Shown here: positions 23,679 through 64,000 of the stretch, piece by piece
How the letters are laid out: the number at the start of each line of letters is the position of its first letter
How positions within the stretch are numbered: the first letter of the stretch is position 1
Origin: a virus
Taxonomy: Duplodnaviria; Caudoviricetes
Direction: 5' to 3' (one strand)
DNA: 64,000 bases
Virus record (IMG/VR): IMGVR_UViG_3300017914_000750
Location: 1-64,000 of that record
Translations under genes and position numbers: made by a program
Notes under the pieces: generated by a model
The model's database searches: none
What the model was told of the DNA's origin: nothing
The model's input: the letters and a program-made list of their open reading frames with translations, nothing else

Positions 23679-23971
23679 TAATCTCTTCTTGCATCGACCT
23701 TTCCGTCCTCTAGAAAATTCTCTGCTCTTGCAATCCTATCGATATCGGGCTTGAGTTCCAATGCCGAGGATATTAATAAATCTATCTTAATCATGTCATT
23801 GTTCATTTGTCTAACTCTAGACTCCAATGACCCTATAATATTGTATAGTCCATTCACTTGTCCTACTACTGACTCAAGGATATATCTTAAAGTTAGGAAG
23901 ATAAAGAACGCCATAACTACAGCAGTTCCTATCGGGACTCCTACTTCACTCAAAAACGATAACATATCCAT
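23678..23971 (-). CDS. Small single-TM coiled-coil protein
   Basis: EVGVPI TM helix; RQMNNDMIKI; TATAAATA 5 nt before the ATG. Confidence 0.75.
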   Translation of the reverse strand: MDMLSFLSEVGVPIGTAVVMAFFIFLTLRYILESVVGQVNGLYNIIGSLESRVRQMNNDMIKIDLLISSALELKPDIDRIARAENFLEDGKVDARRD

Positions 23972-33251: not shown

Positions 33252-33753
33252 AATCTAATCTCTTTTTCATTTCTTTTGGTCTAGCTTTTAATGCTCTTTC
33301 AATCTTAAGTCTAGACGCTCTTTGAAGAAATATAATTCCGTTTAGGTGGTCAATCTCATGTTGGACACACCTAGAACCAATACCGTCTAATTGTAATGTC
33401 TTTCTTTCTCCTTCTGCATCAGTGTAATCAAATTCTATCACCTTTGCTCTTTTTATCATTAAGTATATATCGGGAAAAGAAAGGCACCCTTCTTTCATCA
33501 TTTCAGTCTCTTTTGATAGTTTTGTAATCTCGGGATTAAAGAATGCTTTGGTTCCACTATCTGCAGTCTTCATTACAAAAACTCTGTAATCTAATCCTAA
33601 CTGATTTGCAGATAATCCTATACCACCAAACCTATCCATTGCCTCTGCAAGGTTCTTTTCTATTTGTATAGGGTCTTCGGGTGGATTTTCAAAGTCAAAC
33701 TCTGAAGTTGGATTTCTTAATACTTTACTTGCTTCTTCTACTAACTCATACAT
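33118..33753 (-). CDS. def: Peptide deformylase
   Basis: GIGLSANQ, EGCLS, QHEIDHLNG. Confidence 0.96.
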   Translation of the reverse strand: MYELVEEASKVLRNPTSEFDFENPPEDPIQIEKNLAEAMDRFGGIGLSANQLGLDYRVFVMKTADSGTKAFFNPEITKLSKETEMMKEGCLSFPDIYLMIKRAKVIEFDYTDAEGERKTLQLDGIGSRCVQHEIDHLNGIIFLQRASRLKIERALKARPKEMKKRLDYERRMAIARYLQEQQSVESQTDSSSDEGGVQDTDSVAPKSQASA

Positions 33754-40165: not shown

Positions 40166-41570
40166 TTAAATCAAATTGTAAAATTTCGTAAGGAAATTTC
40201 TCCTCGTTGTAAATATTTATACGGTCTTTAAGGTGACCAAGTGTATAATTATCACATTGTAGGTCGTCTGCTATATCAAACAAACGCATTGATTCTTTAC
40301 CTTCTACCTTTCTTAAACCTCTTCCTATCGATTGTAGGTTTCTGATTCTTGATTTACTAGGACTTGCAAATACGATATTATCTATTCTTTTTATATTAAC
40401 ACCAGTAGAGAATGTTCCATAAGATGCAAGTATGGTATCGTTCTCTGCCTTCTCTACTATCTCTCTAACAGCTTCTCTGTCTTCCGTGTCTGTTCCACCA
40501 TATACATAGTGTAAGTTTTCACCCAGTCTCTTAAACATTTTCTCATGTAGAAGAACTCCATGTTTTTCGACATATTGGAATAATACGAGTGTATTTCCCG
40601 ATAAACTATACACAAGATTACAGATAAATTCGTTTCTTGCCTCATTAGAAACAAGGTAATCCATTTCTTCTTGGTATGTTAATTTCTTCTGTTTAGTATG
40701 ACGAAGTATGACACATTGTATATCTAATTTTGCAATAGTTCCTTCGTCCATGAGTTGGTATGACGATATTACTTTCTTTACAGGCCCGAATAGACCTTCT
40801 AATTGTAATCTATGACACTCTGACCCGTCTAATGTTCCTGTAGTTCCTATACGAACTGCAGTCTTTCTCATTTTCTCTAGTATACCTTTTAACACATTTG
40901 CTTTAAATAAATGTGCTTCGTCTCCTACTACTACTTCGAAACTTTCCAAGACTTCTTTAGGAGCCTTACTAAATGACTGCCATGTAGTGATTGTGATGTC
41001 CGAATCAAATACAGGCTGACCCGAATAAATCTTACAAATCTTTTCATCATATCCATACTCCTCAAAGTCTTTTGCCATTTGCTCTACCAATGAAGTAGTA
41101 GGGACAATGATAACAGTTTTCTTATTATAATACCTTGTAAGCATATATATAATCAACGACTTTCCACTTGCAGTAGGTGAAAGTAATAGTTGTCTACCAT
41201 ATTGAACTGCAGTTCTGAATGCGTCTAATTGGTAATCTCTTGGTTCAAAAGGAAGTCCTAAATGTTTAATAAAGTCCTCATCGGCTTGTCTTGTTTTTTC
41301 ACCGAGGATATCCCCTATACCTTTTATTTCATACCCTCTCTCCCTACAGAACTCGTCTACATAAGGAAGGAGACCGATATAAATCTTATTTGTTTTTATG
41401 CTGAAGAGTCTGACCTTCCCGTCCCAATACCTATTCTTTACGGAAGGCATAAACTTTGCATTTGGAACGGTGAACGAGAAGAAGTCGAAGAGGTCTCTAG
41501 CTAGACCGTCATCACATTCTACTTTCATGAAGACTTCGTCAATCTTCTTTAGGTTTATTTCAGAGGCCAT
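40152..41570 (-). CDS. uvsW: SF2 helicase UvsW
   Basis: WDGK, PTASGKS, DEAH, QSIGRGLR. Confidence 0.96.
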   Translation of the reverse strand: MASEINLKKIDEVFMKVECDDGLARDLFDFFSFTVPNAKFMPSVKNRYWDGKVRLFSIKTNKIYIGLLPYVDEFCRERGYEIKGIGDILGEKTRQADEDFIKHLGLPFEPRDYQLDAFRTAVQYGRQLLLSPTASGKSLIIYMLTRYYNKKTVIIVPTTSLVEQMAKDFEEYGYDEKICKIYSGQPVFDSDITITTWQSFSKAPKEVLESFEVVVGDEAHLFKANVLKGILEKMRKTAVRIGTTGTLDGSECHRLQLEGLFGPVKKVISSYQLMDEGTIAKLDIQCVILRHTKQKKLTYQEEMDYLVSNEARNEFICNLVYSLSGNTLVLFQYVEKHGVLLHEKMFKRLGENLHYVYGGTDTEDREAVREIVEKAENDTILASYGTFSTGVNIKRIDNIVFASPSKSRIRNLQSIGRGLRKVEGKESMRLFDIADDLQCDNYTLGHLKDRINIYNEEKFPYEILQFDLNDNT

Positions 41571-42247
41571 CCTGTATTCCATACTACCAAGGATTTTCTG
41601 ACTCCTCTTGTTACGGGTGTAACTTGGTGGTGTAACCATGAAGGGAAAACTAATAGTGAACCTAATTCCTTTCCACTAAATGGTGCAGTTTGAACTAACT
41701 TATCATAGGGTAAATTCTTTTGATTGAACTTCAAAGTATCGAATACTTCTGTTGATTCAATCCATTGAAAATGTCCACCTTCATAATCTTCGGGTGGAGA
41801 TAGTTGTATAGAAGCTGATAACTTTCTAGTCATACCACTTGGATATAAATCTGCACTAGAATCTGTATGCCATGTGTAGAAGTCTCCAGTAGGTAATTCG
41901 GGTTGGTGTTCATATATGGTATACTGCCATGTTTCCATAAACTCTAATTCATAATTCCAACCAGCTTGTTGGTTTGCAGACATCATACCGTCTTGAATTT
42001 TTTGTTTTAATTTTGGGTCAAATCTAGGGTCTGAATGGTCTAACCAACGATTGGTTGATTGTCTAATACTATTATCAATTGCACCACCATCGTCTCCACT
42101 TCTTGCTCTTTCACCGTCTGCGTCAAAATCATTATTACCAATTTTTGCTGTAATGATTTCTAAATTTTGTGCATATCCATGTATATAATCTACTTCTTGA
42201 GGTGTCAAGAAATTAGGAATTACATAACAATAAGTTTTATATAACAT
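41555..42247 (-). CDS. 2OG-Fe(II) oxygenase (PKHD/PiuC-like)
   Basis: WHTD, RKLS, YEGG, FPS...HQVTPV..G.RKSLV.W. Confidence 0.88.
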   Translation of the reverse strand: MLYKTYCYVIPNFLTPQEVDYIHGYAQNLEIITAKIGNNDFDADGERARSGDDGGAIDNSIRQSTNRWLDHSDPRFDPKLKQKIQDGMMSANQQAGWNYELEFMETWQYTIYEHQPELPTGDFYTWHTDSSADLYPSGMTRKLSASIQLSPPEDYEGGHFQWIESTEVFDTLKFNQKNLPYDKLVQTAPFSGKELGSLLVFPSWLHHQVTPVTRGVRKSLVVWNTGWPLK

Positions 42248-42690
42248 TAAGAACCCGCCATAAACTTTCTCCAATCAATTGTGTTCTTAATTGTTTGGTG
42301 TCTCCAAGTGATATTAGTCATACACTCTTTGAGAAAGTTAATCTTTATATTTGCATACTCTAAGTTTGCATTTAGTTTCTGTAAATCTGTATCTGCATTG
42401 AAGAATACTTGCATATCATTCTTCATAATTTTAAGACCGTCAAAGGGGTCGTCATTCCACCCTAGTTCTTTGATTCTTGCTTCGTCCATTTTACCATTGA
42501 ACCATAACCATTTATCTTTCAATAATGTATTATATTGAAACTGTATATTCTTTTGTTGGATAATAGCGTCTGTTAAATACTCTGAGTATTTTGCATGGAG
42601 TTTAGGGATTTCTAGGGAAGATTTATCCAGTTCGATATCGTCTATCTCACAATCGGATTTCCATTCAGCTTTCAATTCGTCAATATTCAT
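42247..42690 (-). CDS. uvsY: Recombination mediator UvsY
   Basis: W..D..ID...LD..SL.IPKLHAKY; IKN.IDW.KF..G. Confidence 0.9.
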   Translation of the reverse strand: MNIDELKAEWKSDCEIDDIELDKSSLEIPKLHAKYSEYLTDAIIQQKNIQFQYNTLLKDKWLWFNGKMDEARIKELGWNDDPFDGLKIMKNDMQVFFNADTDLQKLNANLEYANIKINFLKECMTNITWRHQTIKNTIDWRKFMAGS

Positions 42691-52053: not shown

Positions 52054-53658
52054 CTACCATTTTATCTCTACATCATTCTCTTTTGTATACCAACGGTCTC
52101 CATTATCGTCTACAAAGGTTACATCTTCGGGTTTTTCCCCTCCAAACACCCCTGCTGGTAATAAATCCTCTTCTATCATCTTCTGTTGTTCTGCATACAA
52201 TAAGTCTTTGACCTGAGTATCCGTTAAATGGTAGAAGTAATCAGTGGTTATAAACCACGAAAATAATACTAAATTCATGACCATATCGTCATGATATCCC
52301 TTGTCTGCTTCAAAGGAATTACCCTTATTGACAAAGGTCATAAGCTCTGTTATAGTAGGTCTATCAACTACTGATAATCGATTTTCCTCTAATAGTTCTT
52401 TAAGAGTAGAACAACCGATTCTCTTAATCTTACGATTTACAGATATTCCAATATCCTCAGCCTTTAACTGTCCTTGAGTAAACACATTTGGATATTCAAT
52501 ATCATAATGTAATTGAGTTGCAACTATACCACCTTCTGCATTATTTTCAATGATAACTAATGCCTCATTATAAGGTCTTACATATTTATTTATAATATCG
52601 GGAAACAGCATGGGACTTACCATGTCGTCTCGATAGGTTGCAACTTGTTTAAAAGGTTTACTTGTTACATCAAATATAGAGAATGTGGAAAAGTCCATAC
52701 CTCTACCTTTTGCAACATCAACCGTGCAAACATAATTATGTCCTTCAATCGGCTTCTGATATATACTCACACCGTCGCGATTCCACTCGGGGTCTTCGGA
52801 CATCATACCTAACAAGGTATTAGAGTTAATTAGAGTATTACCAGTTCCTAAGAATGAGTTACCATACTCTTGTTCAAACTGTGCTTCTGAGGTGTTTGCA
52901 ATAGTTTGTTCTTTCCATTCCTCGTCTCTGCCTGGCACATCATACCAATTGATTATGAAGTGTTTATATTCTGACTGTTCGTGAACTGCAGATTCGTATA
53001 TCTTATGGAACATATTACCTACACCGTTTGCAGTTGAGGTAATGATAACCTTTGAATCTTTACCCGAGGTAATTACGGGATATGTTGCAGTATAGAATGT
53101 CTCTGCATCGTCTACAAAAGCAAACTCGTCCAAGTATAGTAGATTGATAGACATACCACGAATCGAACTTGAACTTGTTGCAGCTGCAACTACTTTTGAG
53201 TCATTTGCAAACTCAATTGACCCTTTGTTTAAAATCTTTACGCCTGGTTGTAAAAAGAATGGAACAGACTCTAACATGGTTACGACCCTTGCAATCATTT
53301 CTCTTGCAATTGCACCTTTGTTAGCAAGAACTGCAACGGTAACTTCGGGGTGAAATAATAGATACCATAATAAGTATGCACACGAAGTGATTGATTTACC
53401 ACTCTGTCTACTTGCAAGAACTACATTAAATCTATTTGAATTATAGTGTTCTATGAGTTTATCTTGATATCCACGAAGTTTAAATGGAACCATACCTTCG
53501 TCAAGAGATATAATCTGAGTATAAGATTCAATAAAATGCACGGGGTCTTGAGAACACTTCATGTATTCTTTCAATTCCTCTTCAGTATATTGAGTCTCAA
53601 TACCAGCTCTCTTAATAAGAGTGTTACCGAGATATCCTTCGTTTGTTGGTTTAACCAT
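52054..53658 (-). CDS. gp17: Terminase large subunit
   Basis: SRQSGKS, LDEFAF, STANG, HDDMVM. Confidence 0.97.
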   Translation of the reverse strand: MVKPTNEGYLGNTLIKRAGIETQYTEEELKEYMKCSQDPVHFIESYTQIISLDEGMVPFKLRGYQDKLIEHYNSNRFNVVLASRQSGKSITSCAYLLWYLLFHPEVTVAVLANKGAIAREMIARVVTMLESVPFFLQPGVKILNKGSIEFANDSKVVAAATSSSSIRGMSINLLYLDEFAFVDDAETFYTATYPVITSGKDSKVIITSTANGVGNMFHKIYESAVHEQSEYKHFIINWYDVPGRDEEWKEQTIANTSEAQFEQEYGNSFLGTGNTLINSNTLLGMMSEDPEWNRDGVSIYQKPIEGHNYVCTVDVAKGRGMDFSTFSIFDVTSKPFKQVATYRDDMVSPMLFPDIINKYVRPYNEALVIIENNAEGGIVATQLHYDIEYPNVFTQGQLKAEDIGISVNRKIKRIGCSTLKELLEENRLSVVDRPTITELMTFVNKGNSFEADKGYHDDMVMNLVLFSWFITTDYFYHLTDTQVKDLLYAEQQKMIEEDLLPAGVFGGEKPEDVTFVDDNGDRWYTKENDVEIKW

Positions 53659-54619
53659 ACATTCTCGTTGTAAAATCCCAATCGTAAGTCATTCTCCAAT
53701 GAGTAAGACCCATATTGGTAAAATTAAATTTACCGTCAAATCCACATTCCCAACCTAACATTACTTTCTTGTCGGGGTCATGAAATTTTTCTCCACCTAA
53801 TATATCACCTTCATATACTTGTTTCGTTATTTTAAAAGTATCTGTATAATCACACCATAGATTTTGGTTCCTAAAACCAGCTTGTTCCCATGCATGTTGT
53901 AAATCTGAAATCATATCTAGGTATGTGAGACCAGCTTTATCTAAATCACCACCATAATCTACTTTTGTATCTTCACCATACATTTTAGTTTGTTCTAGTT
54001 CGTATAGGTTTACAGTATTAGGATATAGTTTATCCATTACTCCTCTTTCTTTTGCACTTTCAAATAAAGGAACTATACCCTCTCCATAAAAGTTATATGC
54101 AACCATTTCATGAATATAGATATCTGCTTCAGGCCATTCTGCTCTATTGAAACAATCATGAATTATATTCCAATTAGGAAAACGACCTTTTAGATATACA
54201 TTACTCCAAAAGTTTTTATCTATACCTATACATTTTTTTGCACCATGAAAGTCTGCAAGTGCTAAGAGACAACCAGTTCCTACTCCTAAATCACAAACAG
54301 TTTTACCCCTTGCATGTTCTTTAAAGAATTTTGAGTATGCATTATTTCTATCTGCATCTCTTATCATTGCAGTATATCCTGTTCCTCGTTTAGTTAGATT
54401 ACTGACTGCTTCATACCATAGTGGGTGTCCCATATCTATATGAGGAGGCATTTTTATTTCACTATCACTTTGAAACTGTTGTTTGAGTCTGAGAACTTTT
54501 AAATATTTATCCTCACCCATTTCAGTAAAATCAGGCTCAACATATGATATCGAACCCTGTTTCATGTCATGAATTACATATGGTTCGTCATTGTTGTTTT
54601 CTTTAGTCTGTTCCGTCAT
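53651..54619 (-). CDS. Class I SAM-dependent methyltransferase, PRMT-like
   Basis: MIRD..RN.AY, VCDLGVGTG, GAKKCIGID, HEMVAYNFYGEG (double-E-like), THW near the C-terminus. Confidence 0.7.
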   Translation of the reverse strand: MTEQTKENNNDEPYVIHDMKQGSISYVEPDFTEMGEDKYLKVLRLKQQFQSDSEIKMPPHIDMGHPLWYEAVSNLTKRGTGYTAMIRDADRNNAYSKFFKEHARGKTVCDLGVGTGCLLALADFHGAKKCIGIDKNFWSNVYLKGRFPNWNIIHDCFNRAEWPEADIYIHEMVAYNFYGEGIVPLFESAKERGVMDKLYPNTVNLYELEQTKMYGEDTKVDYGGDLDKAGLTYLDMISDLQHAWEQAGFRNQNLWCDYTDTFKITKQVYEGDILGGEKFHDPDKKVMLGWECGFDGKFNFTNMGLTHWRMTYDWDFTTRMYG

Positions 54620-55015: not shown

Positions 55016-56068
55016 TTAACCGTCACTGGCTCTATCCTCAGAATATGTTGAGGTTACACCGTCATCATAAAAACTCACTGTTTCTGCAACTACGAAAGTA
55101 TCGTTAGGTTGAACTGAACCAACATACTTCAACTGCGTGTTTGCAGATATTGTTACAGCACTACTTAATGTAATTCCAAGTTTATCACTTGTAATTGCTG
55201 TAATTGTAGGATTCGTTGTTAAGTTAGTTCCAAAAACCTCGTCTCCTACACTTATCTTACTATTTATTGCTGTGGGGAATGTTACTGTTGCACTACCACT
55301 TACTGCATTATTGTTGTCTGTTGCAAACGCAGGTTCATAGTGTTTAACTTCTTTGACCAATCCTGAATTATTAATCTGAGTTGAAGTAAATCCAGGCTGG
55401 ATATCTGTATTAATGTAATCTCTTTCGATAACATTTTTGATAACCTCTCCAGTATAAACTGGGCCGAAGAAGTATATCTTCATAGTAAATTCTAATGTGT
55501 ATTCTATAACTCTTCTTTCTACAAACTCACCTTCATATTGGTCGTCCATTGTAACTGAGTTCAATATGACTGGGACATCTCTTACTTCATTCATACTATC
55601 AACCATTTTCATTGATACTGTATATTCGGGTTGGAAGTAAGGAAGTATTTGTTCTACAATTTGAATTGCGTCAATAGCATTCTTTGACATAATTGATAAT
55701 GTAAAACTTAAATTGTATGGTGCTGGTTGATACTGGAAACCTCTCTTCCCTGTATCTGAAGTTTCTAATTGTGATTTTTGTGTTCTGAGTAATTTATTTT
55801 GTTGTCTTGCTGGGTCATACTCTAGACCTGTAAGTTCGAATGCCATACGAGGTAAAGATATAGAAGTAACATTACCGTCTTTTGCTTTTACATCGTCTTT
55901 TAATCTTAAGAGGAATTTTTGTTTTGGGCCATATGATATAGGAACTAAATTTTTTGCCAATACAGTTCCGTCTGCTTTTATTTTACTTGTATAGATATTA
56001 TTAAATAAGGTTCCAAATACAGAAATTGACCTTTTAATAGTTTCATTGTAAAAGAATGTTCCAAACAT
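55016..56068 (-). CDS. gp15: Tail sheath stabiliser/terminator
   Basis: FGTLFN, PISYGPK, LPRMAFE, EQILPYFQP. Confidence 0.92.
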   Translation of the reverse strand: MFGTFFYNETIKRSISVFGTLFNNIYTSKIKADGTVLAKNLVPISYGPKQKFLLRLKDDVKAKDGNVTSISLPRMAFELTGLEYDPARQQNKLLRTQKSQLETSDTGKRGFQYQPAPYNLSFTLSIMSKNAIDAIQIVEQILPYFQPEYTVSMKMVDSMNEVRDVPVILNSVTMDDQYEGEFVERRVIEYTLEFTMKIYFFGPVYTGEVIKNVIERDYINTDIQPGFTSTQINNSGLVKEVKHYEPAFATDNNNAVSGSATVTFPTAINSKISVGDEVFGTNLTTNPTITAITSDKLGITLSSAVTISANTQLKYVGSVQPNDTFVVAETVSFYDDGVTSTYSEDRASDG

Positions 56069-56925
56069 TATGGTTCACCAAACGGGTTAGTTTCACTAAA
56101 GTCTAAGTAGTTATTATCATTATCTTCAAACTCTTTGTTCTGAGCAGAAGATAGACTTTCGAAAGTCATTACATCAACAATACTATTGATAGGTCTTGCT
56201 GTATTTGATACAGTTCCCGTCAATACATCATTAACAGATAAAGTCTGAGTATTGTTTTTGATTGTAAGTTTATTAGTTGAAGCTTGCCATGTTATTACTT
56301 CACCTACAGTATATTCAGTTCCAGCAATTGTTGCTCTCAAGTCTTCACCAACTGTATAATCACCTGAACCACCCATAGTCATTTCGATTGAGTAACCTTG
56401 GTCTGCTTCTACTAGGTCTGCAGCTGAACCAGTATCGAAATCCTCTCCACTGTATTCGAACAATGATACTCTCATCTTGAATACAAATATTTTTCCTAAC
56501 TGATAGAATGGGTCGGGGTCTGTTACAAATCTAATTTCAAATAAATGACCTGTCATAGGGAAGTAAATTAAATCACCTTCATTAGGTCTGTTTGAAACTA
56601 CGAGATTAGAATCAAGAGAAATAAATCTTTCCCAAGTTCTTAAACTCATTATAAAGGTAGCATCGTCATTGATATCAACACCGAACTTAGTAACTAAATC
56701 GTCCTGACCGTCATATCCTTCTGTATTCTCTAGATACATTTCAACCGAATAGGCGTCACCAAATCTAGCTTGGATATCTTCTCCAAGAATAGTCTCCTCT
56801 TCTACTATTTGTCTAGGTAGATATAAGACATCATGACCATACATTCTAAGTGCTTCAACAACTAAATCCTCGTAGAGGTGTTGTTCAGTCGCTACTGCAT
56901 GGTTAAAGAATACATTTGTTGGCAT
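56068..56925 (-). CDS. gp14: Neck protein
   Basis: E.L..YG..V.YLPR, RPNEGDLIYFP, PFYQLG, FSETNPFG. Confidence 0.93.
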   Translation of the reverse strand: MPTNVFFNHAVATEQHLYEDLVVEALRMYGHDVLYLPRQIVEEETILGEDIQARFGDAYSVEMYLENTEGYDGQDDLVTKFGVDINDDATFIMSLRTWERFISLDSNLVVSNRPNEGDLIYFPMTGHLFEIRFVTDPDPFYQLGKIFVFKMRVSLFEYSGEDFDTGSAADLVEADQGYSIEMTMGGSGDYTVGEDLRATIAGTEYTVGEVITWQASTNKLTIKNNTQTLSVNDVLTGTVSNTARPINSIVDVMTFESLSSAQNKEFEDNDNNYLDFSETNPFGEP

Positions 56926-56929
56926 TCAA

Positions 56930-57745
56930 TTACCCCATTAAGTCCATGACTGGTAATTCATAATTCAGTCTTGACTCTTCTTCTAATTTTGTTATTTCCT
57001 CTTGTGCTTGTGCTTTCATTTCAGAAGCGTCTAGTTGCACTCCGCCTGGCAACTGGAATCCTGAAAACTTAGATAAATTTTCACCCCACTGATATTTCAC
57101 TAGTGCAGTTGCATATCTTTTTAACCACATATCATTATAGATATCTGTAAAATCGTTTGGGTCAATCTTTCTATGACATTCTATAAGTAAGTGTTCTGTA
57201 TCTTGAAAATCTTCTATAGATGCATCGATATACAATCTATTCATATGTTGTTTATATCTGATAGGTGTTTGTCCTACTAATACTTGGTCTAACATACTGA
57301 TATGTTGTTGAACCATTTCATAGTATAAAATGTTTGTAGAAGTTAAATCATACAAATCATTTAATCTTAATTGATATCTTAAATCAAACATATTAAGATT
57401 ATGTCTATCATTGAAAGGGAAGATTTTATTTACTGCAAGAACAAACTCAGGCAGAACTATATAATTCTTCTGTTGTTTGACTTGCATGTCAGCATAATCA
57501 TGAGTTCCAGCCGAAGTTTCCGTGAAGGTTTCGTCTGTTCTCATTGCGTCTATTTGAGTTTGAGTTAACTGGTGCTTCAAATAACAACGAATAGACCCGT
57601 CATAATGGTATTCTTGAAAGTATTGGACTGCCTCGTCTATTCTATCATCAAACTGGTCATCGTCCACATTAATTTCTAGAACTGGAGCTCCAAGTTTTCT
57701 CTTTATGTATTCTTTAAATGTTGCTTTTGAATTTGGTGTTGCCAT
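56930..57745 (-). CDS. gp13: Neck protein
   Basis: LGAPVLEINV, WLK.YATAL.K.QWG.NL.KF, LPGG. Confidence 0.94.
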   Translation of the reverse strand: MATPNSKATFKEYIKRKLGAPVLEINVDDDQFDDRIDEAVQYFQEYHYDGSIRCYLKHQLTQTQIDAMRTDETFTETSAGTHDYADMQVKQQKNYIVLPEFVLAVNKIFPFNDRHNLNMFDLRYQLRLNDLYDLTSTNILYYEMVQQHISMLDQVLVGQTPIRYKQHMNRLYIDASIEDFQDTEHLLIECHRKIDPNDFTDIYNDMWLKRYATALVKYQWGENLSKFSGFQLPGGVQLDASEMKAQAQEEITKLEEESRLNYELPVMDLMG

Positions 57746-57792
57746 AATAGTATAATCCAGTTATTTCCTGCTTTATACTATTTATAACGATT

Positions 57793-58053
57793 CTATTCTT
57801 GGAAATAAGTTTTAGATTGGATTCGGTCTAACTTCTCGTCAATCCTTTGAATAGACCTCATTATTTTGTCGAAATCTGCTTCAATTTGGTCTCTTGTAAC
57901 ATAATCTTTTGCGATTTCTTCTCTTGTTTTATTGACTAAGATATCTAATCTTTTTTGTTCGTTTAATACATTTCTAATTAGAAATCCTAACGGGGCTACG
58001 ATTACCGTGATGATAATGTTCCATAAGATATAAGGTGATACAGTAATTTCCAT
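57793..58053 (-). CDS. Small single-TM coiled-coil protein
   Basis: N-terminal TM; TREE.A..YVT; TATAAATA 5 nt before the ATG. Confidence 0.7.
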   Translation of the reverse strand: MEITVSPYILWNIIITVIVAPLGFLIRNVLNEQKRLDILVNKTREEIAKDYVTRDQIEADFDKIMRSIQRIDEKLDRIQSKTYFQE

Positions 58054-58070
58054 ACTGTTATTTATAAAAA

Positions 58071-58763
58071 CTACTTGACTATGTCGTAATCTTCATTCAA
58101 TGGGAAGTGATTCCAGTCGGGGTCTATATCCATTGCATGGTCATTACTCATGTTTAATTTATGAGAAACAACATTAAAGGATATAGAATATCTATCTTTT
58201 TCTGTTCTATTTGGTTCAACCATATGCATCATAGCACTTGGAAACAATATTAAAGACCCTGTTGTAGGTCTTATTCTATATGTATCCATTTGTCTTACAT
58301 TATTTGGAAAGTCTGATACTACTTTTGGGTCTTTATCGAGTGCAACAAAGTCTCCTTCATCGCCGTCTCCTTTAATATAAAAAGCACCACTATACCAACA
58401 ACCATTATGTAAATGGGGTTTATTCCATGCACCATTATCATTTATATTTGCCCATGAGTTACCTATATCTATTTGAATTTTACCTGTATTGATAGCATGA
58501 AATCCACAAATTTCGTTGTTGTAAATATCTTTTAATACTCTCATTATTTTTGTAAATGCTGGGTGTCTATCACAACCGTCATTTGATTGCCAACCACTAT
58601 ATGCATTTGATATGTTTCTACCAACTGGGTCTTTCTTTCTCATACCGTCTACAGCTTCTCTCAACATATCACAATAATCTTCTGTAATCCTACCACTCTC
58701 AATAAGATTTTCTTCGTATACTATCGTTGGAAATAGTAATCTAATTCCCTTTTTCATCGTCAC
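58071..58763 (-). CDS. Putative 2OG-Fe(II) oxygenase (TIGR02466-like)
   Basis: GWQS, SWANIN, HLH, SG.FY, FPS...HMV.PN, R.SISFN. Confidence 0.85.
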   Translation of the reverse strand: MTMKKGIRLLFPTIVYEENLIESGRITEDYCDMLREAVDGMRKKDPVGRNISNAYSGWQSNDGCDRHPAFTKIMRVLKDIYNNEICGFHAINTGKIQIDIGNSWANINDNGAWNKPHLHNGCWYSGAFYIKGDGDEGDFVALDKDPKVVSDFPNNVRQMDTYRIRPTTGSLILFPSAMMHMVEPNRTEKDRYSISFNVVSHKLNMSNDHAMDIDPDWNHFPLNEDYDIVK

Positions 58764-59676
58764 CGTCCCAATTTAATTCTGTTCTTTTCTTTTGTTCAAC
58801 TTTAAAATCAAACTCCATTTGTTCTTCTTTCTTATGCATAGGACACTCAGGTGGTGGAGTATCTTCTGAGAATAATTTTGCCTTATTAGTTTTTATCTTG
58901 GCATTTCTATAACCACCAATGTTTAATTTTTCTGAAGCTTTCCTCTGTATATATTCACCTGTTGCTGGGTCTATTTTCATATGTCCACCTTCCATTTGCC
59001 ATTTTTGCATTGACCTATCATGTATACCATGTGTTTGATACCATTCATTTGATTCTGCATAGGTATAAGTTGCATGATATTCTTCTCTTTTATATGGGAC
59101 AAATTGACATATAGGTTGTCCAGCTGGTATAATGAAAGAATGATTAACTTTAGGATAAAATATAATTTGTGCATTATCCATATTCATATTAAAGTTATCC
59201 GTATCAATGATACCTTGCCATACTGCAAAATATTGATTTTGAAATAAAAAAGGGTCTATAAAGAATGTGGAATACCCTTCGGGTGTTGTAATGTTCCACC
59301 TTTGACTTATTTTAAATGCGTCTTTGACTGGACAATCTTCACCCATGTATTCAAATATATCTTCAAATTGTGAAGACCCATGTGAAGGTGAACGGATAGG
59401 ACTATTAGGAGAGGTTACGAATATTTCATTTTCTTCGGGAAAATTCCAATCATGACCATTCATAACTGGTATATCTTGAGTTGCAATTATATACCAACCT
59501 AGTTTTAAATAATCGTCCATGGCTGGACATGACCTTAGAGTTTGAACTATTTGACCCCTATGGTGAACTTTTACTTTTGCTTTCTTCCACCATTCGGGGT
59601 GATAGTTCTTTGCAAGAACTGGTCTAAAGTTCTCAAAAGCACTTCCATCGAATGTTCTAAAATCAATTGTAGGCAT
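58741..59676 (-). CDS. Hypothetical protein (DUF6065-like)
   Basis: PEWWK, CPAM.D, W.I.TPEGYS, GIIDTD, G.PICQF.P; family commonly found beside oxygenases. Confidence 0.65.
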   Translation of the reverse strand: MPTIDFRTFDGSAFENFRPVLAKNYHPEWWKKAKVKVHHRGQIVQTLRSCPAMDDYLKLGWYIIATQDIPVMNGHDWNFPEENEIFVTSPNSPIRSPSHGSSQFEDIFEYMGEDCPVKDAFKISQRWNITTPEGYSTFFIDPFLFQNQYFAVWQGIIDTDNFNMNMDNAQIIFYPKVNHSFIIPAGQPICQFVPYKREEYHATYTYAESNEWYQTHGIHDRSMQKWQMEGGHMKIDPATGEYIQRKASEKLNIGGYRNAKIKTNKAKLFSEDTPPPECPMHKKEEQMEFDFKVEQKKRTELNWDGDDEKGN

Positions 59677-60376
59677 ATCTATCCTGTTTATCTAGTAGTC
59701 TAACTTCGTCTCCTCTCAAGACTATAGACCTTCTATCTATGTAGTTTGCATTTGAAGAAGGTGCTTCTGCACCATGTGGTATTCTACCGTCAAACATTAA
59801 TAATCTATTCGGTTTAAATGCAACTCTTCCTATTTCAAACTCATTCATGTGGTCTTCTGTTCCAGTCTCTACATGTTGACTATAAAATCTTAAATCTCCA
59901 CCCCAGTTATCATTCCAAAATGTATTTGTATAATATAGAAAAGATAAATTAAAATCATCATCAAGACTACAATCAGCATGACAGCTTCCATTTTGACCCA
60001 TAGTTTGAGAGTTGGTTCCCATATATTGAAATCGTATCCAATCAAAAGAGAAATCAGTTCTTATTTTCTTATCTATGTAATCCATAAAATATGGATAGTA
60101 AAAGTTTGATTTACATTTTACTTTTTGTCCGTTGTTTGCTCTAAAATATGAAGCACCCCATAATTCATGACTAGGTAATCCACCTCTTTTTCTATTATCT
60201 ACAGTTTGAACACAATTGTTCTTTTGCCAATTTGTTTGATTTCTTAGAAAGGAGTCTGTATGGTGGTGTAATTCAGCTGACAAATAATTGTCAAAGATAT
60301 AAACTTTATTTCCTAGTGGGAGTTCTTCAATATAGAACGGTGAATCACATTCTATTACTTCAATAGAATTAACCAT
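59663..60376 (-). CDS. 2OG-Fe(II) oxygenase
   Basis: HAD, LYY...W...WGG, PNRL..FDG.IPH, R.SIV. Confidence 0.85.
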   Translation of the reverse strand: MVNSIEVIECDSPFYIEELPLGNKVYIFDNYLSAELHHHTDSFLRNQTNWQKNNCVQTVDNRKRGGLPSHELWGASYFRANNGQKVKCKSNFYYPYFMDYIDKKIRTDFSFDWIRFQYMGTNSQTMGQNGSCHADCSLDDDFNLSFLYYTNTFWNDNWGGDLRFYSQHVETGTEDHMNEFEIGRVAFKPNRLLMFDGRIPHGAEAPSSNANYIDRRSIVLRGDEVRLLDKQDRYAYN

Positions 60377-60920
60377 CTTGTATGACTGAAGAAGGTGGAA
60401 GAGTCATTATATAATCTTCTAAATCTCTTAGAGTGTCTTCTCTAGTTACAGATATGTCTCTGTAAATACCGTCTGCAACTGTATATGTTGCATCTGCAAA
60501 CTCTAAGACCCTTCTTGCTTCAGACCTGTATGGGTGTGCTGAACCTTCTCTACCAGCATATATAGCGTCAAGAAAATTTTCAAATCCATATGCTTCACAT
60601 TGAACTTCTATATTTCTTTTTACTGCGTCATGAACTCTATCAATGAATTGATTATTAAGAGTTACACCATGAGGTGGTTCTGAATTTTCAATGTATCTCT
60701 CAATTGCATCTCTATCTGTTTCTGATAAAGGTTGAGTGTCTTGTTCATCAAAAGGTTTGTCTTTATCCCATTCTAAAATTTTTACTTCGATTTGGTCATA
60801 TACCAACACATCAAAGTCAAACCCTAAGTCTGGCTTATCAACATTTTCAAATCTATATTCTAATCCGTTTGGTTTTCTTACTAATAAATTTCCAAACTCA
60901 CAATATACTAATGCATTCAT
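60369..60920 (-). CDS. Hypothetical protein resembling tail-fibre assembly helpers
   Basis: C-terminal AYGFENF..A..A....YRSEA pattern; weak. Confidence 0.5.
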   Translation of the reverse strand: MNALVYCEFGNLLVRKPNGLEYRFENVDKPDLGFDFDVLVYDQIEVKILEWDKDKPFDEQDTQPLSETDRDAIERYIENSEPPHGVTLNNQFIDRVHDAVKRNIEVQCEAYGFENFLDAIYAGREGSAHPYRSEARRVLEFADATYTVADGIYRDISVTREDTLRDLEDYIMTLPPSSVIQDG

Positions 60921-60940
60921 AATATCTCCATTCTAACATA

Positions 60941-62479
60941 TTAGTTGTTTTTTGGCAACCCGTTTTTTACTCTATCGTAGTAACCTAACATATTTATGTT
61001 ACTCGTATCCATGCCTTTAATCCAAGGGCCACCTCTTGTATAATGGATTGCATGTTCTGTTTTTTGAAATTTTGTATCGAATCCTTCTGTTGCAATTTTA
61101 CCATGTGGTATTTTACTTACTTTATCAGTCCATTGAAACTGATGTAGATATTGTCCACTTGCAGTATTAATTAATTCGGGTGTTAGTTTCCTACAATCTT
61201 CATGACCATTATTAAAAATCATCATACTAGACCATAATTTTTTAGGATATGATACATTCTTTTCTCCACCCATTTTAACTTCGTCATGGTGTTCAAAATC
61301 ATATTGAACACATGCTACTGCATTGTCGGGGTCTAAGAAATAGAATAAAGGTAAGGGAGACCTTTGCCATATGTAATCGTTATCAATGAAGAAACTAAAT
61401 CCTTCATAGTTTTCTAAATATGGAATTAAGAATCTACTGTAAGTAAATTCAGTAGACTGTTGTGCATACTCTCTATTATACACTGGAATTTTAGAATAGT
61501 CAAGGCGTTTGACTTCTATTTTATAATCTTCAAAGAACTCTTCTCCTACACCTTTACATTTTGACTTTTCTATGCTATCATGTATTGACTTTTCTGCAAC
61601 TTCATGTATAATATCGTCATGACTTGAATCATAACCAATATAGATATTGATTGGTTTTTTCTTTGTTAGTTTATGCACCTTTCTATTAAAAGCATGAACT
61701 TGTTTTCTAAAGTCTGTTCCCCCATGGTCTATTGGAACATTGATTTCTATTTTTCCTTGGTCTGTCCATATACCACTTATATTTTTTCTTCCCTTTGGAA
61801 CTAATGAAGTCCAAAAATCTAAAAGGTTATCTACATTTAGACTTGGGTGGTTTGAAAAACAGTTTGAATAGTCTGTAACTAAACAAGTCATATCGGGTTC
61901 GTCCATTGCTTGGAATGATTGACACCTCATAGAGCCTGGGTGTATATTAAGTTTACCGTTTTTAGTGTGTCCTTGGATAGGTTGCCAGAGACCTTCTTTT
62001 TGAATATTGTTTATTAACCAGTGTGCTTTTGCAGCGTGATAATAAACTGCAGCCACTTGATTTTCTTGAACTGGGTCTTCGTCTTGACCAGTTATTTGTT
62101 CATAGACACCGTCTTCAATCATATAGTCCATTGAACCACCACCAATAGGGTGATTTTCTCTTAAATCTGCAGTCCAACCTTTATGAACAAAAGTAAAGTA
62201 ATTTAATGAAGGATTTATTAAACCACCCCATTCTTGTAGGTCTCCTTCGTTCATTAATTTTTTGATATGTTTCCATGTAACTAATCTAATAGGTGGTAAT
62301 GTATCCAAAATATGTTGCCATATTTCTTTTCTGTCTTCGATAGGTTTATGAGCTCTTTCACCTTCTGCCCATAATTGGGGAAGAATAAATTGTTCTTTAG
62401 GACGAGTTTCATATGTGAAACTATCGTTAAATAGTTCTTTTGCTCGTTCAAGGGTTTTGATTTCTTCAAATCTGTCCAT
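60941..62479 (-). CDS. Glycosyltransferase (GT-A, GT8-like) fused to an unknown N-terminal domain
   Basis: IYIGYD, STEFTYSRFLIP, DND, WSSMMIFN, HYTRGGPW. Confidence 0.82.
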   Translation of the reverse strand: MDRFEEIKTLERAKELFNDSFTYETRPKEQFILPQLWAEGERAHKPIEDRKEIWQHILDTLPPIRLVTWKHIKKLMNEGDLQEWGGLINPSLNYFTFVHKGWTADLRENHPIGGGSMDYMIEDGVYEQITGQDEDPVQENQVAAVYYHAAKAHWLINNIQKEGLWQPIQGHTKNGKLNIHPGSMRCQSFQAMDEPDMTCLVTDYSNCFSNHPSLNVDNLLDFWTSLVPKGRKNISGIWTDQGKIEINVPIDHGGTDFRKQVHAFNRKVHKLTKKKPINIYIGYDSSHDDIIHEVAEKSIHDSIEKSKCKGVGEEFFEDYKIEVKRLDYSKIPVYNREYAQQSTEFTYSRFLIPYLENYEGFSFFIDNDYIWQRSPLPLFYFLDPDNAVACVQYDFEHHDEVKMGGEKNVSYPKKLWSSMMIFNNGHEDCRKLTPELINTASGQYLHQFQWTDKVSKIPHGKIATEGFDTKFQKTEHAIHYTRGGPWIKGMDTSNINMLGYYDRVKNGLPKNN

Positions 62480-62505
62480 AATATAAAGTATTTAGTTGTT
62501 AAAAA

Positions 62506-63312
62506 TTAACTACCAATCGGAGTTGCAGGCCACTGTTGGTTTACATCTCCATCCCATCTTGCTTCAGGTGTTCTACCCTGTCTTGCATATGTAAATGGTG
62601 ACCTATGGTCGTATGTAAATGGATTTTGACCAGTTCTCTGATAAGTTGAAGGTGACCTATAATCATATGTAAACGGTGTTTGACCCGTTCTCTGATATGT
62701 TGAAGGAGACCTATAATCATATGTGAAAGGTGTCTGACCAGTTCTTTGATAAGTCGAAGGCGACTGATAATCGTAAGTAAATGGTGTTTGACCAGTTCTT
62801 TGATATGTTGAAGGAGACCTATGGTCATATGTAAATGGAACCTGTTGGTCTCTTATATTTGGTTGTTGTGCTGACCTAATGTTAGGTTCTTGAGCATTTG
62901 CAATATAAGGACTAGGTTGTTGTATTGACCTAATATTAGGTTCCTGTGCATTCACTGGATTTCTATAGGTGAATGGTGACCTATGAGAGTAAGTATTAGG
63001 TTGTCTCGCAGGTGCTTGATATGTAAATGGTGACCTATAGTTATAAGTAAACGGGTTCCTTGCTGGTGCTTGATATGTGAAAGGAGACCTGTAATGATAT
63101 GTAAACGGGTTCCTTGCTGGTGCTTGATATGTAAACGGTGACCTATAGTGATAAGTAAACGGGTTCCTTGCTGGTGCCTGATATGTAAATGGCACCCTAT
63201 GATGATAAGTAAATGGGTTCCTAGCATCGTTCTCATATATGAAAGGTTGCCTAAAAGAAAAGGGAACTGGCTGTCTAGCAGAAGAAATAAATGGTGATTG
63301 ATATGTTGGCAT
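62506..63312 (-). CDS. Pro/Tyr/Thr/Gln-rich tandem-repeat protein
   Basis: PFTY repeats; no Lys, Leu or Cys; GAGGAG RBS. Confidence 0.85.
   Translation of the reverse strand: MPTYQSPFISSARQPVPFSFRQPFIYENDARNPFTYHHRVPFTYQAPARNPFTYHYRSPFTYQAPARNPFTYHYRSPFTYQAPARNPFTYNYRSPFTYQAPARQPNTYSHRSPFTYRNPVNAQEPNIRSIQQPSPYIANAQEPNIRSAQQPNIRDQQVPFTYDHRSPSTYQRTGQTPFTYDYQSPSTYQRTGQTPFTYDYRSPSTYQRTGQTPFTYDYRSPSTYQRTGQNPFTYDHRSPFTYARQGRTPEARWDGDVNQQWPATPIGS
62623..62838 (-). repeat. 4 x 54-nt coding tandem repeat (PFTYDxRSPSTYQRTGQT)
   Basis: Visible in the translation; copies differ mostly at synonymous sites. Confidence 0.9.
63001..63216 (-). repeat. 4 x 54-nt coding tandem repeat (PFTYHYRSPFTYQAPARN)
   Basis: Visible in the translation; copies differ mostly at synonymous sites. 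Confidence 0.9.
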
Positions 63313-63326
63313 TCTCCTCTATCCTC

Positions 63327-64000
63327 CTACTTCTGTTGTCTGTTATGAGCAAGTATATCATGTGCAAAATAGTTTTGATTTCCACTTACTTTTGTTAAAT
63401 GGTATACTTTATGTAGACCTTCTAGTTTTTCTATACAGTCGACTGCATGTTTAGGTGTGTTTTGTAAAATACATGATATTGTATCAATGATTTTATCACC
63501 TTCTTCAACTACACCTGAGATTTCTCCACCCCATGCTGTTCCTTCTGCAACTTCTTGTTCCCAATCTTCCATGCTTATAACACACCAACCTTTTCCGTCA
63601 ACTTTGATTGGGTGTCCACCTGTTAGTTTTACACCTCTACCACCGAAAGATATTTCGTATAATTCACATTCTCTTGGAACCATTAGTTCTTCTACTTCAC
63701 CTACCATGATTGTTAAATTCTCATCTGCAGTCATAACCATATCACCAACTTCAACTTTTTGAATTGGCATATATGAACCGTCTTCCATCCAAATCATAGT
63801 ATCTTCTGCGAAGCAACCACCACCTCGACCACCGCCTGGGAAGAAGACTGGTTGTCTTGCTTGGAAGGTGAATGGGTTTTGGAATGCACCAGTATTCGGT
63901 TGCTGAAGGTTTGCAATATAGGTAAATGGTTGCTGAGCACTTCTAATATTCGGTTGTTGAATATTCGCAGGATATGTAAATGGTTGTCTTGCACTTCTAA
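63327..64000 (-). CDS. Repeat protein with a C-terminal Hint (intein-like) domain; 5' end lies outside the window
   Basis: Frame is open to the window end: ...QQPNIRSAQQPFTYIAN...PGGGRGGG-CFAEDT...LTGGHP...NYFAHDILAHN-RQQK; Cys1 codon at 63813-63815. Confidence 0.88.
   Translation of the reverse strand, partial: RSARQPFTYPANIQQPNIRSAQQPFTYIANLQQPNTGAFQNPFTFQARQPVFFPGGGRGGGCFAEDTMIWMEDGSYMPIQKVEVGDMVMTADENLTIMVGEVEELMVPRECELYEISFGGRGVKLTGGHPIKVDGKGWCVISMEDWEQEVAEGTAWGGEISGVVEEGDKIIDTISCILQNTPKHAVDCIEKLEGLHKVYHLTKVSGNQNYFAHDILAHNRQQK

Follow-up and report, generated by a model that had tools for sequence, protein, structure and literature searches.

The distal end of the 64,000-nucleotide stretch of DNA analysed here (hereafter the window) belongs to an uncultured marine T4-like phage and carries, on the minus strand between the tail-fibre and neck genes, a pair of repeat-protein genes followed by a cassette of enzyme genes. 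We tentatively interpret this region as a fibre module with a dedicated late tailoring cassette. It is plausible that the repeat proteins are virion components, that they serve as the enzyme substrates, and that particular residues are modified in a fixed succession of steps. If true, such a fibre-tailoring system would be new for phages. Gene calls together with domain matches recovered every gene named in the original prediction, in the order repA-repB-GT fusion-p183-oxy3-p311-oxy5-p86-gp13.

The repB gene (62506-63312, minus strand) encodes 268 aa of Pro/Tyr/Thr/Gln/Arg repeat units, with 38 Pro residues and, as previously noticed, no Lys, Leu or Cys. The repeat unit [Q/R]-x-P-(F/Y)-(T/I)-(Y/A) is 8 or 10 residues long, and the Pro residues are mostly spaced by 4, 6, 8 or 10 residues rather than by the 7-10 first proposed. 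The protein closes with a conserved C-cap ending in ..QQWPATPI(G/S)S. Its partner, repA, had likewise been recognised, but this gene is cut by the window edge (63327..64000 in the window; full gene G000 63327-64739, minus strand) and the Hint domain at the C-terminus of its product had been overlooked. The complete 470-aa protein comprises a 53-aa Trp-rich N-cap, about 250 aa of Pro-punctuated 8/10-residue units, a GGGRGGG linker and the Hint domain. The repeats of both proteins far exceed chance expectation; the repeat family was seen in about 200 viral contigs, and repA homologues are present in 80 of 80 related loci.

Comparison of the two proteins showed that the series of unit lengths in repB, read from the C- to the N-terminus, equals that of repA read from N to C in 28/28 units. 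Furthermore, the lengths of the repA repeat and of repB covary (Spearman 0.88, n = 58 pairs, repB 206-559 aa), the former exceeding the latter by 32-38 aa in most pairs (repB 206-480 aa in those). This mirror and covariation suggest that repA and repB probably form an antiparallel two-chain fibre. Together with the neighbouring genes, which encode fibre and structural proteins, they support the fibre nature of the pair.

The Hint/bacterial-intein-like (BIL) domain of repA (63342..63809, minus strand) extends from Cys311 to Asn466, followed by RQQK and the stop. Pfam Vint matches the repA C-terminus with 28.0 bits against a cut-off of 27, and Hint, Hint_2 and Intein_splicing match more weakly. 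Aligning 19 distinct copies showed an invariant Cys1, a conserved TxxH and a terminal HN in 18 of them; the +1 residue is R, M, L, G, I, A or F and never C, S or T. On this pattern, self-cleavage would be expected rather than canonical splicing. The domain is carried by only about one-third of the otherwise syntenic relatives. With its Cys1, TxxH and terminal His-Asn, the lack of a nucleophile after Asn, and its location in a hypervariable, non-conserved protein, it resembles the A-type BIL domains (Amitai 2003, Dassa 2004, to the extent summarised in PMC7765530), but it differs from them in occupying the extreme C-terminus of a fibre-like repeat protein from a phage, where only 4-14 residues follow it.

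Downstream of the repeat pair, the neighbouring genes p183/oxy3, oxy3/p311 and p311/oxy5 overlap. A CTAAATA late-promoter-like motif (62489..62495, minus strand) ends 9 nt 5′ of the GT fusion start codon. Among 46 distinct relatives, 43 have CTAAATA or ATAAATA 12-41 nt upstream of the GT gene, within the late structural region, often preceded by a hairpin and a T-run 3′ of repB. The earlier suggestion of late promoters needs qualification: the enzyme block has the CTAAATA variant, and the canonical TATAAATA occurs only before p86 (58059-58066) and gp13 (57779-57786). We propose that the enzyme block may be expressed late from its own late-type motif. The small protein p86 (57793..58066, minus strand), which starts with a hydrophobic segment and is otherwise helical, is context and lies outside the cassette, as do the neck genes Ad2 (gp13) and Hc2 (gp14) and the tail sheath stabiliser gp15 (55016..57786, minus strand). 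In T4, whisker and short-fibre genes lie between the tail fibres and gp13, at the place taken here by repA and repB, and in T4-like phages this gap is a variable region.

The GT fusion (GT512; 60941-62479, minus strand) is a 512-aa protein joining a ParB/Srx-like domain to a GT8 glycosyltransferase. The N-terminal domain (residues 1-272; 61664..62479, minus strand) has an invariant HPGSxR and was modelled with an AF2 pLDDT of 89.6. Its Foldseek top list contains nearly exclusively ParB/Noc/Srx/SbnI proteins at weak E-values (0.08-0.6), and the best VIA Z is only 4.0; judging from the model, it may be a ParB/sulfiredoxin-like nucleotide-binding core. Residues 277-512 (60944..61651, minus strand) form a GT8-type retaining GT-A domain, in which the DxD (D366/D368) and the C-terminal H479-x-T-R-G-G-P-W are invariant in 41 sequences; PF01501 matches 24 of these 41 relatives weakly. 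The fold matches LgtC (Z 15.5), then GlyE, UGGT, the Skp1 alpha-galactosyltransferase and glycogenin (Z 13-14), and also PBCV-1 A64R. Among the fold neighbours, GlyE, the Skp1 galactosyltransferase, glycogenin and mimivirus R699 (Z 9.7) glycosylate proteins or protein glycans. GT8 enzymes more commonly extend glycans than initiate them on protein, a preference that counts against tailoring.

The oxy3 gene (59663..60376, minus strand) encodes a prolyl-hydroxylase-type 2OG-Fe(II) oxygenase (PF13640, 37.8 bits). Its H133-x-D135, H201 and R215 do not vary, and 41 sequences all keep the metal and 2OG ligands. The only notable PDB matches of the oxy3 profile are protein prolyl hydroxylases (Dictyostelium P4H 6t8m, HIF-PHD, Tpa1 and EGLN1), the best, 6t8m, with an E-value of 8e-4. 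The second oxygenase, oxy5 (58071..58763, minus strand), matches TIGR02466 with 86.8 bits (cut-off 62.5) and PF13759 with 71.9 bits, and its nearest structures, 2rg4 and 3bvc, are both uncharacterised. Between them, p311 (phrog_7084; 58741..59676, minus strand) overlaps the oxygenase genes on both sides. Its original designation as DUF6065-like holds transitively only: with an E-value of 1e-26, the p311 profile matches a protein of another phage, G001, and this protein itself passes Pfam's cut-off for DUF6065. The conserved p183 (60369..60920, minus strand), whose 3′ end shares 8 nt with the start of the following gene, is present in 76/76 covered loci and had no match in Pfam, PHROG, NCBIfam or the PDB; for the earlier term 'assembly-like', the sole leads are weak language-model hints to tail-assembly families.

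All ~100 related viral contigs that we examined share the whole gene order. The order from repA through gp13 is retained in all 76 covered loci and, in a second sample, in all 21 clade loci covering the region, with protein identities of only 40-65%. In phage C48C1, the nearest complete isolate (TerL 55%), repB, GT512 and p311 are absent and the fibre genes directly precede gp13. The proposed co-occurrence of repeats and enzymes is strict within the clade, and DUF6065 and oxygenases recur in two further T4-like lineages, but a GT adjoins the repeat/oxygenase block only in the window clade. In G001 (TerL 41%), a 625-aa Pro/Tyr/Thr repeat protein of the fibre block is directly followed by a PF13640 oxygenase and DUF6065, then by a second p311-like protein, a JmjC/Cupin_8 oxygenase and a PF13759 oxygenase. 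In a third lineage (TerL 32-38%, including a complete 372-kb phage), a Tyr-rich low-complexity protein precedes a PF13640 oxygenase, DUF6065 and a paralogue. These low-complexity proteins are unrelated to repA and repB, and the oxygenases paired with DUF6065 are closer to a window-genome oxygenase at 41555-42274 than to oxy3, which speaks against tailoring. Recurrence of DUF6065 and oxygenases beside low-complexity fibre-block proteins in three lineages supports a link between oxygenases and fibre proteins. However, since all three lineages are T4-like, the arrangement could reflect inherited synteny in a plastic region instead of repeated selection.

In the tailoring system that we tentatively propose, repA and repB would pair in antiparallel orientation, zipping up into a long, thin fibre of two chains whose 8/10-residue units all begin with x-Pro. 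The Hint domain of repA would remove itself through an N-S acyl shift at Cys311, after which the thioester would be hydrolysed or transferred to a nucleophile. The products of the five downstream genes, expressed late from CTAAATA, would have as their substrate this fibre or other low-complexity fibre proteins resembling it. The PHD/P4H-like oxy3 and the TIGR02466 oxygenase oxy5, with the DUF6065-like p311, would hydroxylate side chains of the repeat units, most obviously the Pro at unit boundaries. A hexose would then be attached by the GT8 domain, either at the hydroxyl so created or straight onto the Thr/Tyr of the TY motif; the order of hydroxyproline before O-glycan is purely one that we infer. 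The idea of a modified fibre is partly supported by the enzyme families, which act on proteins or protein glycans, by the strict co-inheritance of the cassette with the repeat pair, by the conserved late-type motif before the GT gene, by the joint absence of repB, GT512 and p311 from C48C1 and by the recurrence in other lineages.

Homologous enzymes also occur away from fibres, which counts against tailoring. The cassette could instead be cargo of a plastic region, adjacent to the fibre only through inherited order and acting on non-repeat host or phage molecules such as LPS/capsule sugars, nucleic acids, ribosomal or other host proteins, or small molecules; marine T4-like phages carry many 2OG oxygenases and glycosyltransferases, which the cassette enzymes would then resemble. 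An oxy3 homologue lies among the replication genes of P-SSM2, and a replication module of the window genome likewise contains homologous oxygenases. The window genome has four 2OG oxygenases, of which two are in the late block and two are distant from any fibre gene, the one at 41555-42274 in the recombination module. G001 has a distant ParB/Srx-GT8 fusion whose gene belongs to the replication module and has no fibre link, and the GT8 homologue of pelagiphage Mosig is found in a methyltransferase/sulfotransferase/GT cluster. DUF6065 homologues lack a fibre context in haloarchaeal viruses, where one adjoins thymidylate synthase, and in loci L195-L197; the generally known variability of the fibre-to-gp13 gap fits as well. 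We nevertheless consider the cargo explanation somewhat unlikely, given the strict order of overlapping genes over ~100 loci at such low identity, the late-type motif of the block itself, the position of DUF6065 and oxygenases directly after unrelated fibre-like proteins in two more lineages, and the repeats and cassette being jointly missing in C48C1.

Less probable still, the cassette might modify or help to assemble virion proteins other than the PFTY-type repeat pair, such as the upstream conventional tail fibres or the capsid. In favour of this, GTs encoded by phages and other viruses are known to decorate capsid and tail proteins, the GT fold matches include A64R, the late cassette lies within the structural region, and ordinary fibre genes also flank the block in G001 and the third lineage. 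However, in all three lineages it is a low-complexity gene, not a conventional fibre gene, that immediately precedes the oxygenase/DUF6065 genes (in the window clade, it lies two genes before them). It is very doubtful that the oxygenase-like and DUF6065-like proteins, with p183, are mainly non-catalytic folding or assembly factors of the fibre: chaperones commonly follow fibre genes and p183 has its tail-assembly hints, but the invariant oxy3 ligands and GT DxD argue for retained catalysis. The original alternative of RiPP-like multi-core precursors, cut into peptides after modification, is scarcely credible, as only sequence repetitiveness and adjoining tailoring-type enzymes speak for it, against the mirrored, structural-type length covariation, the conserved caps, the location among fibre genes and domain searches of the block that found no RiPP recognition element, peptidase, exporter, radical-SAM or cyclodehydratase domain.

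Several known systems resemble the proposed tailoring of the repeat fibre. Mimivirus encodes collagen-like fibre proteins together with a lysyl hydroxylase and glycosyltransferases (L230, R699; PMC9546862, PMC12279948). Both viruses combine repetitive structural proteins with a 2OG hydroxylase or hydroxylase-like enzyme and glycosyltransferases; hydroxylation is followed by glycosylation in mimivirus and may be in the window phage. In contrast to the Gly-X-Y collagen and modified Lys of mimivirus, the window phage has non-collagen repeats, a Lys-free repB and a bacterial host. In the Skp1 pathway of protists, the prolyl hydroxylase PhyA, which we take to be the 6t8m entry, reportedly acts first and glycosyltransferases follow. 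The GT8 enzyme Gat1 belongs to this hydroxyproline glycosylation pathway (bioRxiv 10.1101/764241). The proposed succession of Pro hydroxylation and sugar addition is similar, and the Skp1 GT8 alpha-galactosyltransferase is among the top GT-domain matches (Z 13.7), but the likeness is weak (E 8e-4; 14% identity). Furthermore, Skp1 has a single target Pro, whose sugar is started by a different GT family, Gat1 only capping the glycan.

In PBCV-1, one viral P4H with known in-vitro activity acts on virus-encoded Pro-rich repeats (Eriksson et al. 1999, as cited in PMC7019647). Going by the reference list of that review, hydroxyproline was reportedly not found in the virions, which counts against tailoring. 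PBCV-1 likewise combines a P4H-family enzyme with Pro-rich repeat ORFs in one genome, but it is a eukaryotic virus with PAPK-type repeats and no gene linkage to fibre or GT. Finally, T4-like cyanophages have the same oxygenase Pfam/PHROG families in several copies per genome (P-SSM2 PSSM2_159, 160, 170). There they lie among replication genes without a fibre link, whereas two of the four window-genome oxygenases belong to the conserved late block that comes directly after the fibre repeat genes and also encodes DUF6065 and a GT.

The IMG/VR viral record of which the window makes up the first 64 kb is 93.7 kb long. TerL of the window shares 55% identity with its counterpart in phage C48C1 (Kyanoviridae) and about 45% with cyanomyovirus terminases, and the record was therefore assigned to an uncultured marine T4-like myovirus. 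The region is encoded entirely on the minus strand. In transcription order, fibre and structural genes are followed by the Pro/Tyr-rich repeat proteins repA (470 aa, positions 63327-64739 of the whole record, crossing the window edge) and repB (268 aa, 62506-63312), and then by the enzyme cassette, which consists of the 512-aa glycosyltransferase (GT) fusion GT512 (60941-62479), p183 (60369-60920), oxy3 (59663-60376), p311 (58741-59676) and oxy5 (58071-58763). The gene pairs p183/oxy3, oxy3/p311 and p311/oxy5 overlap. Between the cassette and the neck genes lies p86 (57793-58066), which has a hydrophobic N-terminal segment and an otherwise helical remainder and is kept in 75 of 80 relatives; Ad2/gp13, Hc2/gp14 and the sheath stabiliser gp15 come next, followed by TerS and TerL. 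A DNA search with the 6-kb region against isolated phages returned no match.

The original prediction had described two repeat proteins here, and this observation is right in substance. A residue count confirms that the 268-aa repB lacks Lys, Leu and Cys; it contains 38 Pro, 30 Thr, 29 Tyr, 28 Gln and 27 Arg. Among 58 distinct homologous pairs, Cys occurs in none and Lys is absent from 43. The repeat unit reads [Q/R]-x-P-(F/Y)-(T/I)-(Y/A)-... with a length of 8 or 10 residues, and the most frequent cores in the 58 pairs are PFTY, PYIA, PYPY, PNIR and PSTY. An Arg two residues before the Pro is a very common end of the repeat units. Weak matches of the repeat proteins to Cementoin, DUF1388 and AXH were judged to be low-complexity noise, while a role of the Gln-rich repeats as transglutaminase substrate was dropped because repB has no Lys. 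A tblastn search with repA, run with the low-complexity filter on, gave no match.

In repA, a 53-aa Trp-rich N-cap precedes about 250 aa of repeat units, a GGGRGGG linker and a Hint domain. When SPFTYQ and APAR are merged into a single 10-mer, the unit lengths of repA, read from N to C terminus, form the same series as those of repB read from C to N terminus in 28/28 units (window 62506-64000 together with L009:5507-7740, a locus on the same record). Furthermore, the length of the repA repeats tracks that of repB across the 58 distinct pairs (Spearman 0.88), the difference being 32-38 residues in most of them; in the latter pairs repB spans 206-480 aa, and up to 559 aa across all 58. Because of the mirrored unit-length series and this covariation in length, repA and repB almost certainly pair antiparallel over their full length, and probably form a two-chain fibre. 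A third repeat protein, 543 aa long and built from the same unit types, lies 7.5 kb beyond repA/repB (L009:14412-16043, minus strand; 71411-73042 of the whole record), among fibre genes and with no enzyme genes adjoining it.

The Hint domain of repA (window 63342-63809, minus strand) scores 28.0 bits against Pfam Vint (cut-off 27) and ends in HN, followed by RQQK and the stop codon. In an alignment of 19 distinct Hint copies, Cys1 is invariant and TxxH is kept, while the terminal His-Asn is present in 18 and lost in L058. The +1 residue after HN is R, M, L, G, I, A or F in those 18 copies, never Cys, Ser or Thr, and just 4-14 residues follow the Asn. The domain thus combines the N-terminal Cys, the block-B TxxH, the C-terminal His-Asn and the lack of a +1 nucleophile that define A-type bacterial intein-like (BIL) domains, which undergo self-cleavage rather than canonical splicing (PMC7765530). 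It carries the signature of an A-type BIL and is predicted to be self-cleaving. If repA and repB pair antiparallel, the Hint domain would therefore lie at the fibre end adjoining the repB N-terminus. It occurs in about a third of the relatives only. In the other repA proteins, among them those of L045, L076, L087, L055, L074, L090 and L065, the C-terminus is either a short Gly-rich tail, closing a few residues after a Gly run, or a different extension of ~110-190 aa, which has no Pfam match and could be a swapped tip domain.

The AlphaFold model of GT512 has a pLDDT of 85, and residues 1-272 modelled separately reach 89.6. Structure comparison of the model places residues 277-512 in a GT-A fold nearest to solved GT8 enzymes: LgtC (Z 15.5, rmsd 3.4, 208 aligned), 3tzt (Z 15.0), GlyE (14.3) and glycogenin (13.6), with UGGT and Skp1 alpha-galactosyltransferase as further fold neighbours (Z 13-14). 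D366, D368, H479, G483, G484, P485 and W486 show no variation among 41 sequences, and we take them to represent two GT8 motifs, DxD for metal and nucleotide-sugar binding and a C-terminal one of the H-x-x-G-x-x-x-P-W type. Pfam gave no match for the window protein at E<=0.1, and PF01501 is matched weakly by 24 of the 41 clade GT proteins (best E 5.3e-5). On the model, the C-terminal half of GT512 is a GT8-type retaining GT-A domain, for which sugar transfer is predicted. The N-domain (residues 1-272) has no strong structural neighbour, the best overall VIA score being Z 4.0, with Srx at Z 3.0. Its top Foldseek rows consist almost purely of Noc, Srx, ParB, Spo0J, KorB and SbnI, all weak (E 0.08-0.6 over 53-95 columns), and HPGSxR is an invariant motif of the domain. 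A putative ParB/Srx-like, nucleotide-binding core is a reasonable though tentative reading of this domain.

The oxygenase oxy3 belongs to PF13640 (2OG-FeII_Oxy_3; 37.8 bits, cut-off 27), and its H133, D135, H201 and R215 are constant across 41 sequences. By alignment to the prolyl 4-hydroxylase (P4H) 6t8m, these residues were assigned as the HxD...H iron triad and the 2OG-binding basic residue, an assignment for which we also assume the roles generally accepted for such residues. A single-sequence search of the PDB produced chance matches only, and a profile was needed; nearly all of its matches were protein prolyl hydroxylases, with P4H 6t8m as the best (E 8e-4) and HIF-PHD, Tpa1 and EGLN1 as weak ones (E >0.1). 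This suggests a weak resemblance of oxy3 to PHD/P4H-type protein prolyl hydroxylases, at the family level only. The second oxygenase, oxy5, scores 86.8 against TIGR02466 (cut-off 62.5) and 71.9 against PF13759 (cut-off 27), and the structures nearest to it are uncharacterised proteins. Two further 2OG-Fe(II) oxygenases (phrog_61) are encoded in the replication/recombination module, at 32451-33251 and 41555-42274, both on the minus strand. One adjoins a peptide deformylase gene (33118-33753) and SbcCD-like genes, and the other lies between a helicase gene and a UvsY-like gene.

Pfam scans of p311 and 42 clade relatives gave no match to PF19541 (DUF6065). The clade profile of p311 matches, at E 1e-26, a protein of G001, a 160-kb contig of a second T4-like lineage, which itself reaches 39.2 bits on PF19541 (cut-off 26.6), and 16% of the members of an atlas cluster carry the DUF6065 label. 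No match was found for p183 in Pfam, PHROGs, NCBIfam or PDB profile searches, and PDB profile searches with GT512 and p311 likewise yielded nothing useful. To our knowledge, the TIGR02466 family has no known substrate or function and DUF6065 no known function; in the literature searched, DUF6065 was not mentioned and TIGR02466 scarcely so. Homologues of p311 form >600 protein clusters at 90% identity, several with a Tara source tag, in a profile search whose listed matches were filled by p311's own clade. On these grounds, the window clade is abundant.

Within this clade, the module is strictly conserved. Among the 80 best-ranking IMG/VR loci that contain a repA relative, 76 span the region, and all 76 carry repA, repB, GT, p183, oxy3, p311, oxy5, p86 and gp13-15 in identical order at 40-65% protein identity. 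A second sample, reached via the GT, added 23 clade loci; the order is shared by 21/21 covering ones, and the two incomplete loci agree over the stretch present. The canonical late-promoter motif TATAAATA occurs in the region only before p86, which thus has its own copy, and before gp13. In 43 of 46 distinct relatives, the variant CTAAATA or ATAAATA stands 12-41 nt upstream of the GT start codon (window copy 62489-62495), often preceded by a hairpin and T-run closing the repB transcript. Since this motif is kept before the GT, the enzyme block looks like a separate late transcription unit within the structural region. Scans for sigma-70 promoters and terminators in the region remained at chance level. 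The hairpin between repB and the GT is G+C-rich in L013, L014, L015, L028, L032, L041, L042, L056 and L057, and the window itself has none after repB.

In C48C1, the nearest complete isolate, gp13 directly follows fibre genes, and repB, the GT fusion and p311 are all missing. A GT-profile search of representatives retrieved more distant ParB/Srx-GT8 fusions, whose genomic context was taken from IMG/VR loci; a scan with one of them, P0145, found nothing. G001 (89% complete, TerL 41% identical to that of the window) carries such a fusion in its replication module with no repeat gene near. Inside its tail-fibre block, a 1120-aa fibre and a 340-aa fibre-like protein precede a Pro/Tyr/Thr/Ala repeat protein of 625 aa, with units like QPAYSVTT-NYPSRAVPD. 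Next come a PF13640 oxygenase and DUF6065, then a second p311-like protein, and after it two more oxygenases, of the JmjC/Cupin_8 and the PF13759 type in that order, and fibre genes. The JmjC_2/Cupin_8 gene (L182:10961-11764, plus strand) lies between the p311-like gene and the TIGR02466-like oxygenase, and oxygenases of this type are known for protein hydroxylation. In a third lineage of 11 loci, including a complete 372-kb phage (TerL 32-38% identical), 7/7 mapped loci show a fibre-like gene, a Tyr-rich low-complexity protein (263-512 aa, conserved caps), a PF13640 oxygenase, DUF6065 and a paralogue, in some loci near gp13-/gp15-like genes. The low-complexity proteins of the three lineages have no detectable homology to each other, and the recurrence of the enzymes beside them is the strongest argument found that the oxygenase/DUF6065 genes are functionally linked to the fibre-like repeat proteins. 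Our reading, held tentatively and a little short of an even prospect, is that a fibre module is combined here with a late tailoring cassette that would hydroxylate, and perhaps glycosylate, low-complexity fibre proteins.

The main rival, which we consider rather unlikely, is that the enzymes are cargo of this region and act on other molecules. The three lineages share T4-like ancestry, so that the gene order may be inherited, and the PF13640 enzymes of the other two resemble the window's oxygenase at 41555-42274 more than oxy3, the former being one of the two additional 2OG oxygenases in the replication/recombination module of the window genome. Related genes also lie away from fibres: the P-SSM2 homologue of oxy3 is among replication genes, the GT8 homologue of pelagiphage Mosig is inside a sugar/methyl/sulfo-transferase cluster, and DUF6065 homologues of haloarchaeal viruses and of loci L195-L197 have no fibre context. 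However, cargo of this kind would not readily account for oxygenase/DUF6065 companions that recur beside non-homologous fibre-like proteins in three lineages. As to co-occurrence of repeats and enzymes across phages, which had been proposed as a check, a GT next to repeats is confined to the window's clade.

As to the chemistry, the original prediction invoked extensin-type maturation, which is only one possibility for the cassette. Extensin-type hydroxyproline (Hyp) O-glycosylation involves Ser-Pro(n) motifs, P4H and Hyp-specific arabinosyl or galactosyl transferases. The repeats here (x-P-F-T-Y, P-Y-I-A, P-N-I-R) have single Pro residues and no Pro runs, and the transferase is GT8-type, a family presumably not among the plant Hyp transferases. 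Since the solved relatives of the GT8 domain include glycogenin, which glucosylates a Tyr, direct glycosylation of Thr or Tyr would by analogy be as likely as that of Hyp. The suggested RiPP-like precursor was rejected, as Pfam, PHROGs and NCBIfam reveal no recognition/maturation, peptidase or exporter domains in the block.

Fibre tailoring can be extended to a fuller scheme, which we regard as improbable as a whole, in which the clade matures a two-chain fibre by hydroxylation and then glycosylation from a dedicated late cassette, with Hint-thioester joining of repA in some members. The PHD-like oxygenase, its DUF6065 partner and the TIGR02466 oxygenase would hydroxylate repeat units of the sequence-coded fibre in an O2- and 2-oxoglutarate-dependent manner, and the ParB/Srx-GT8 fusion would glycosylate them afterwards. 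In some members, a Hint thioester at the repA tip would join repA covalently to the adjoining repB N-terminus or another nucleophile.

2OG-Fe(II) oxygenases are among the commonest unexplained 'auxiliary' genes of marine T4-like phages, and a conserved late block behind low-complexity fibre proteins in three divergent lineages offers a concrete substrate hypothesis for TIGR02466 and DUF6065. If this is correct, protein hydroxylation encoded by a phage would be described for the first time, as would hydroxylation-coupled glycosylation of a virion fibre, and DUF6065 and TIGR02466 would gain a function. Virion quality would be tied to the O2/2OG state of the host, with a bearing on host recognition, virion stability in seawater and infection outcome in relation to oxygen and host carbon/nitrogen status. 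The closest known systems include the collagen hydroxylase/glycosyltransferase pair of mimivirus (PMC9546862, PMC12279948), the protist Skp1 Hyp-glycosylation pathway (PMC7864055; bioRxiv 10.1101/764241) and the PBCV-1 P4H, as cited in PMC7019647.

Two minor observations concern the terminase genes. In the window, a 322-aa gene (53651-54619, minus strand) lies between TerS and TerL. In the 372-kb phage of the third lineage, the TerL match falls into two separate pieces that lie in different open frames (L199/L200, G002 21094-23766), a pattern suggestive of an intron, intein or split gene.
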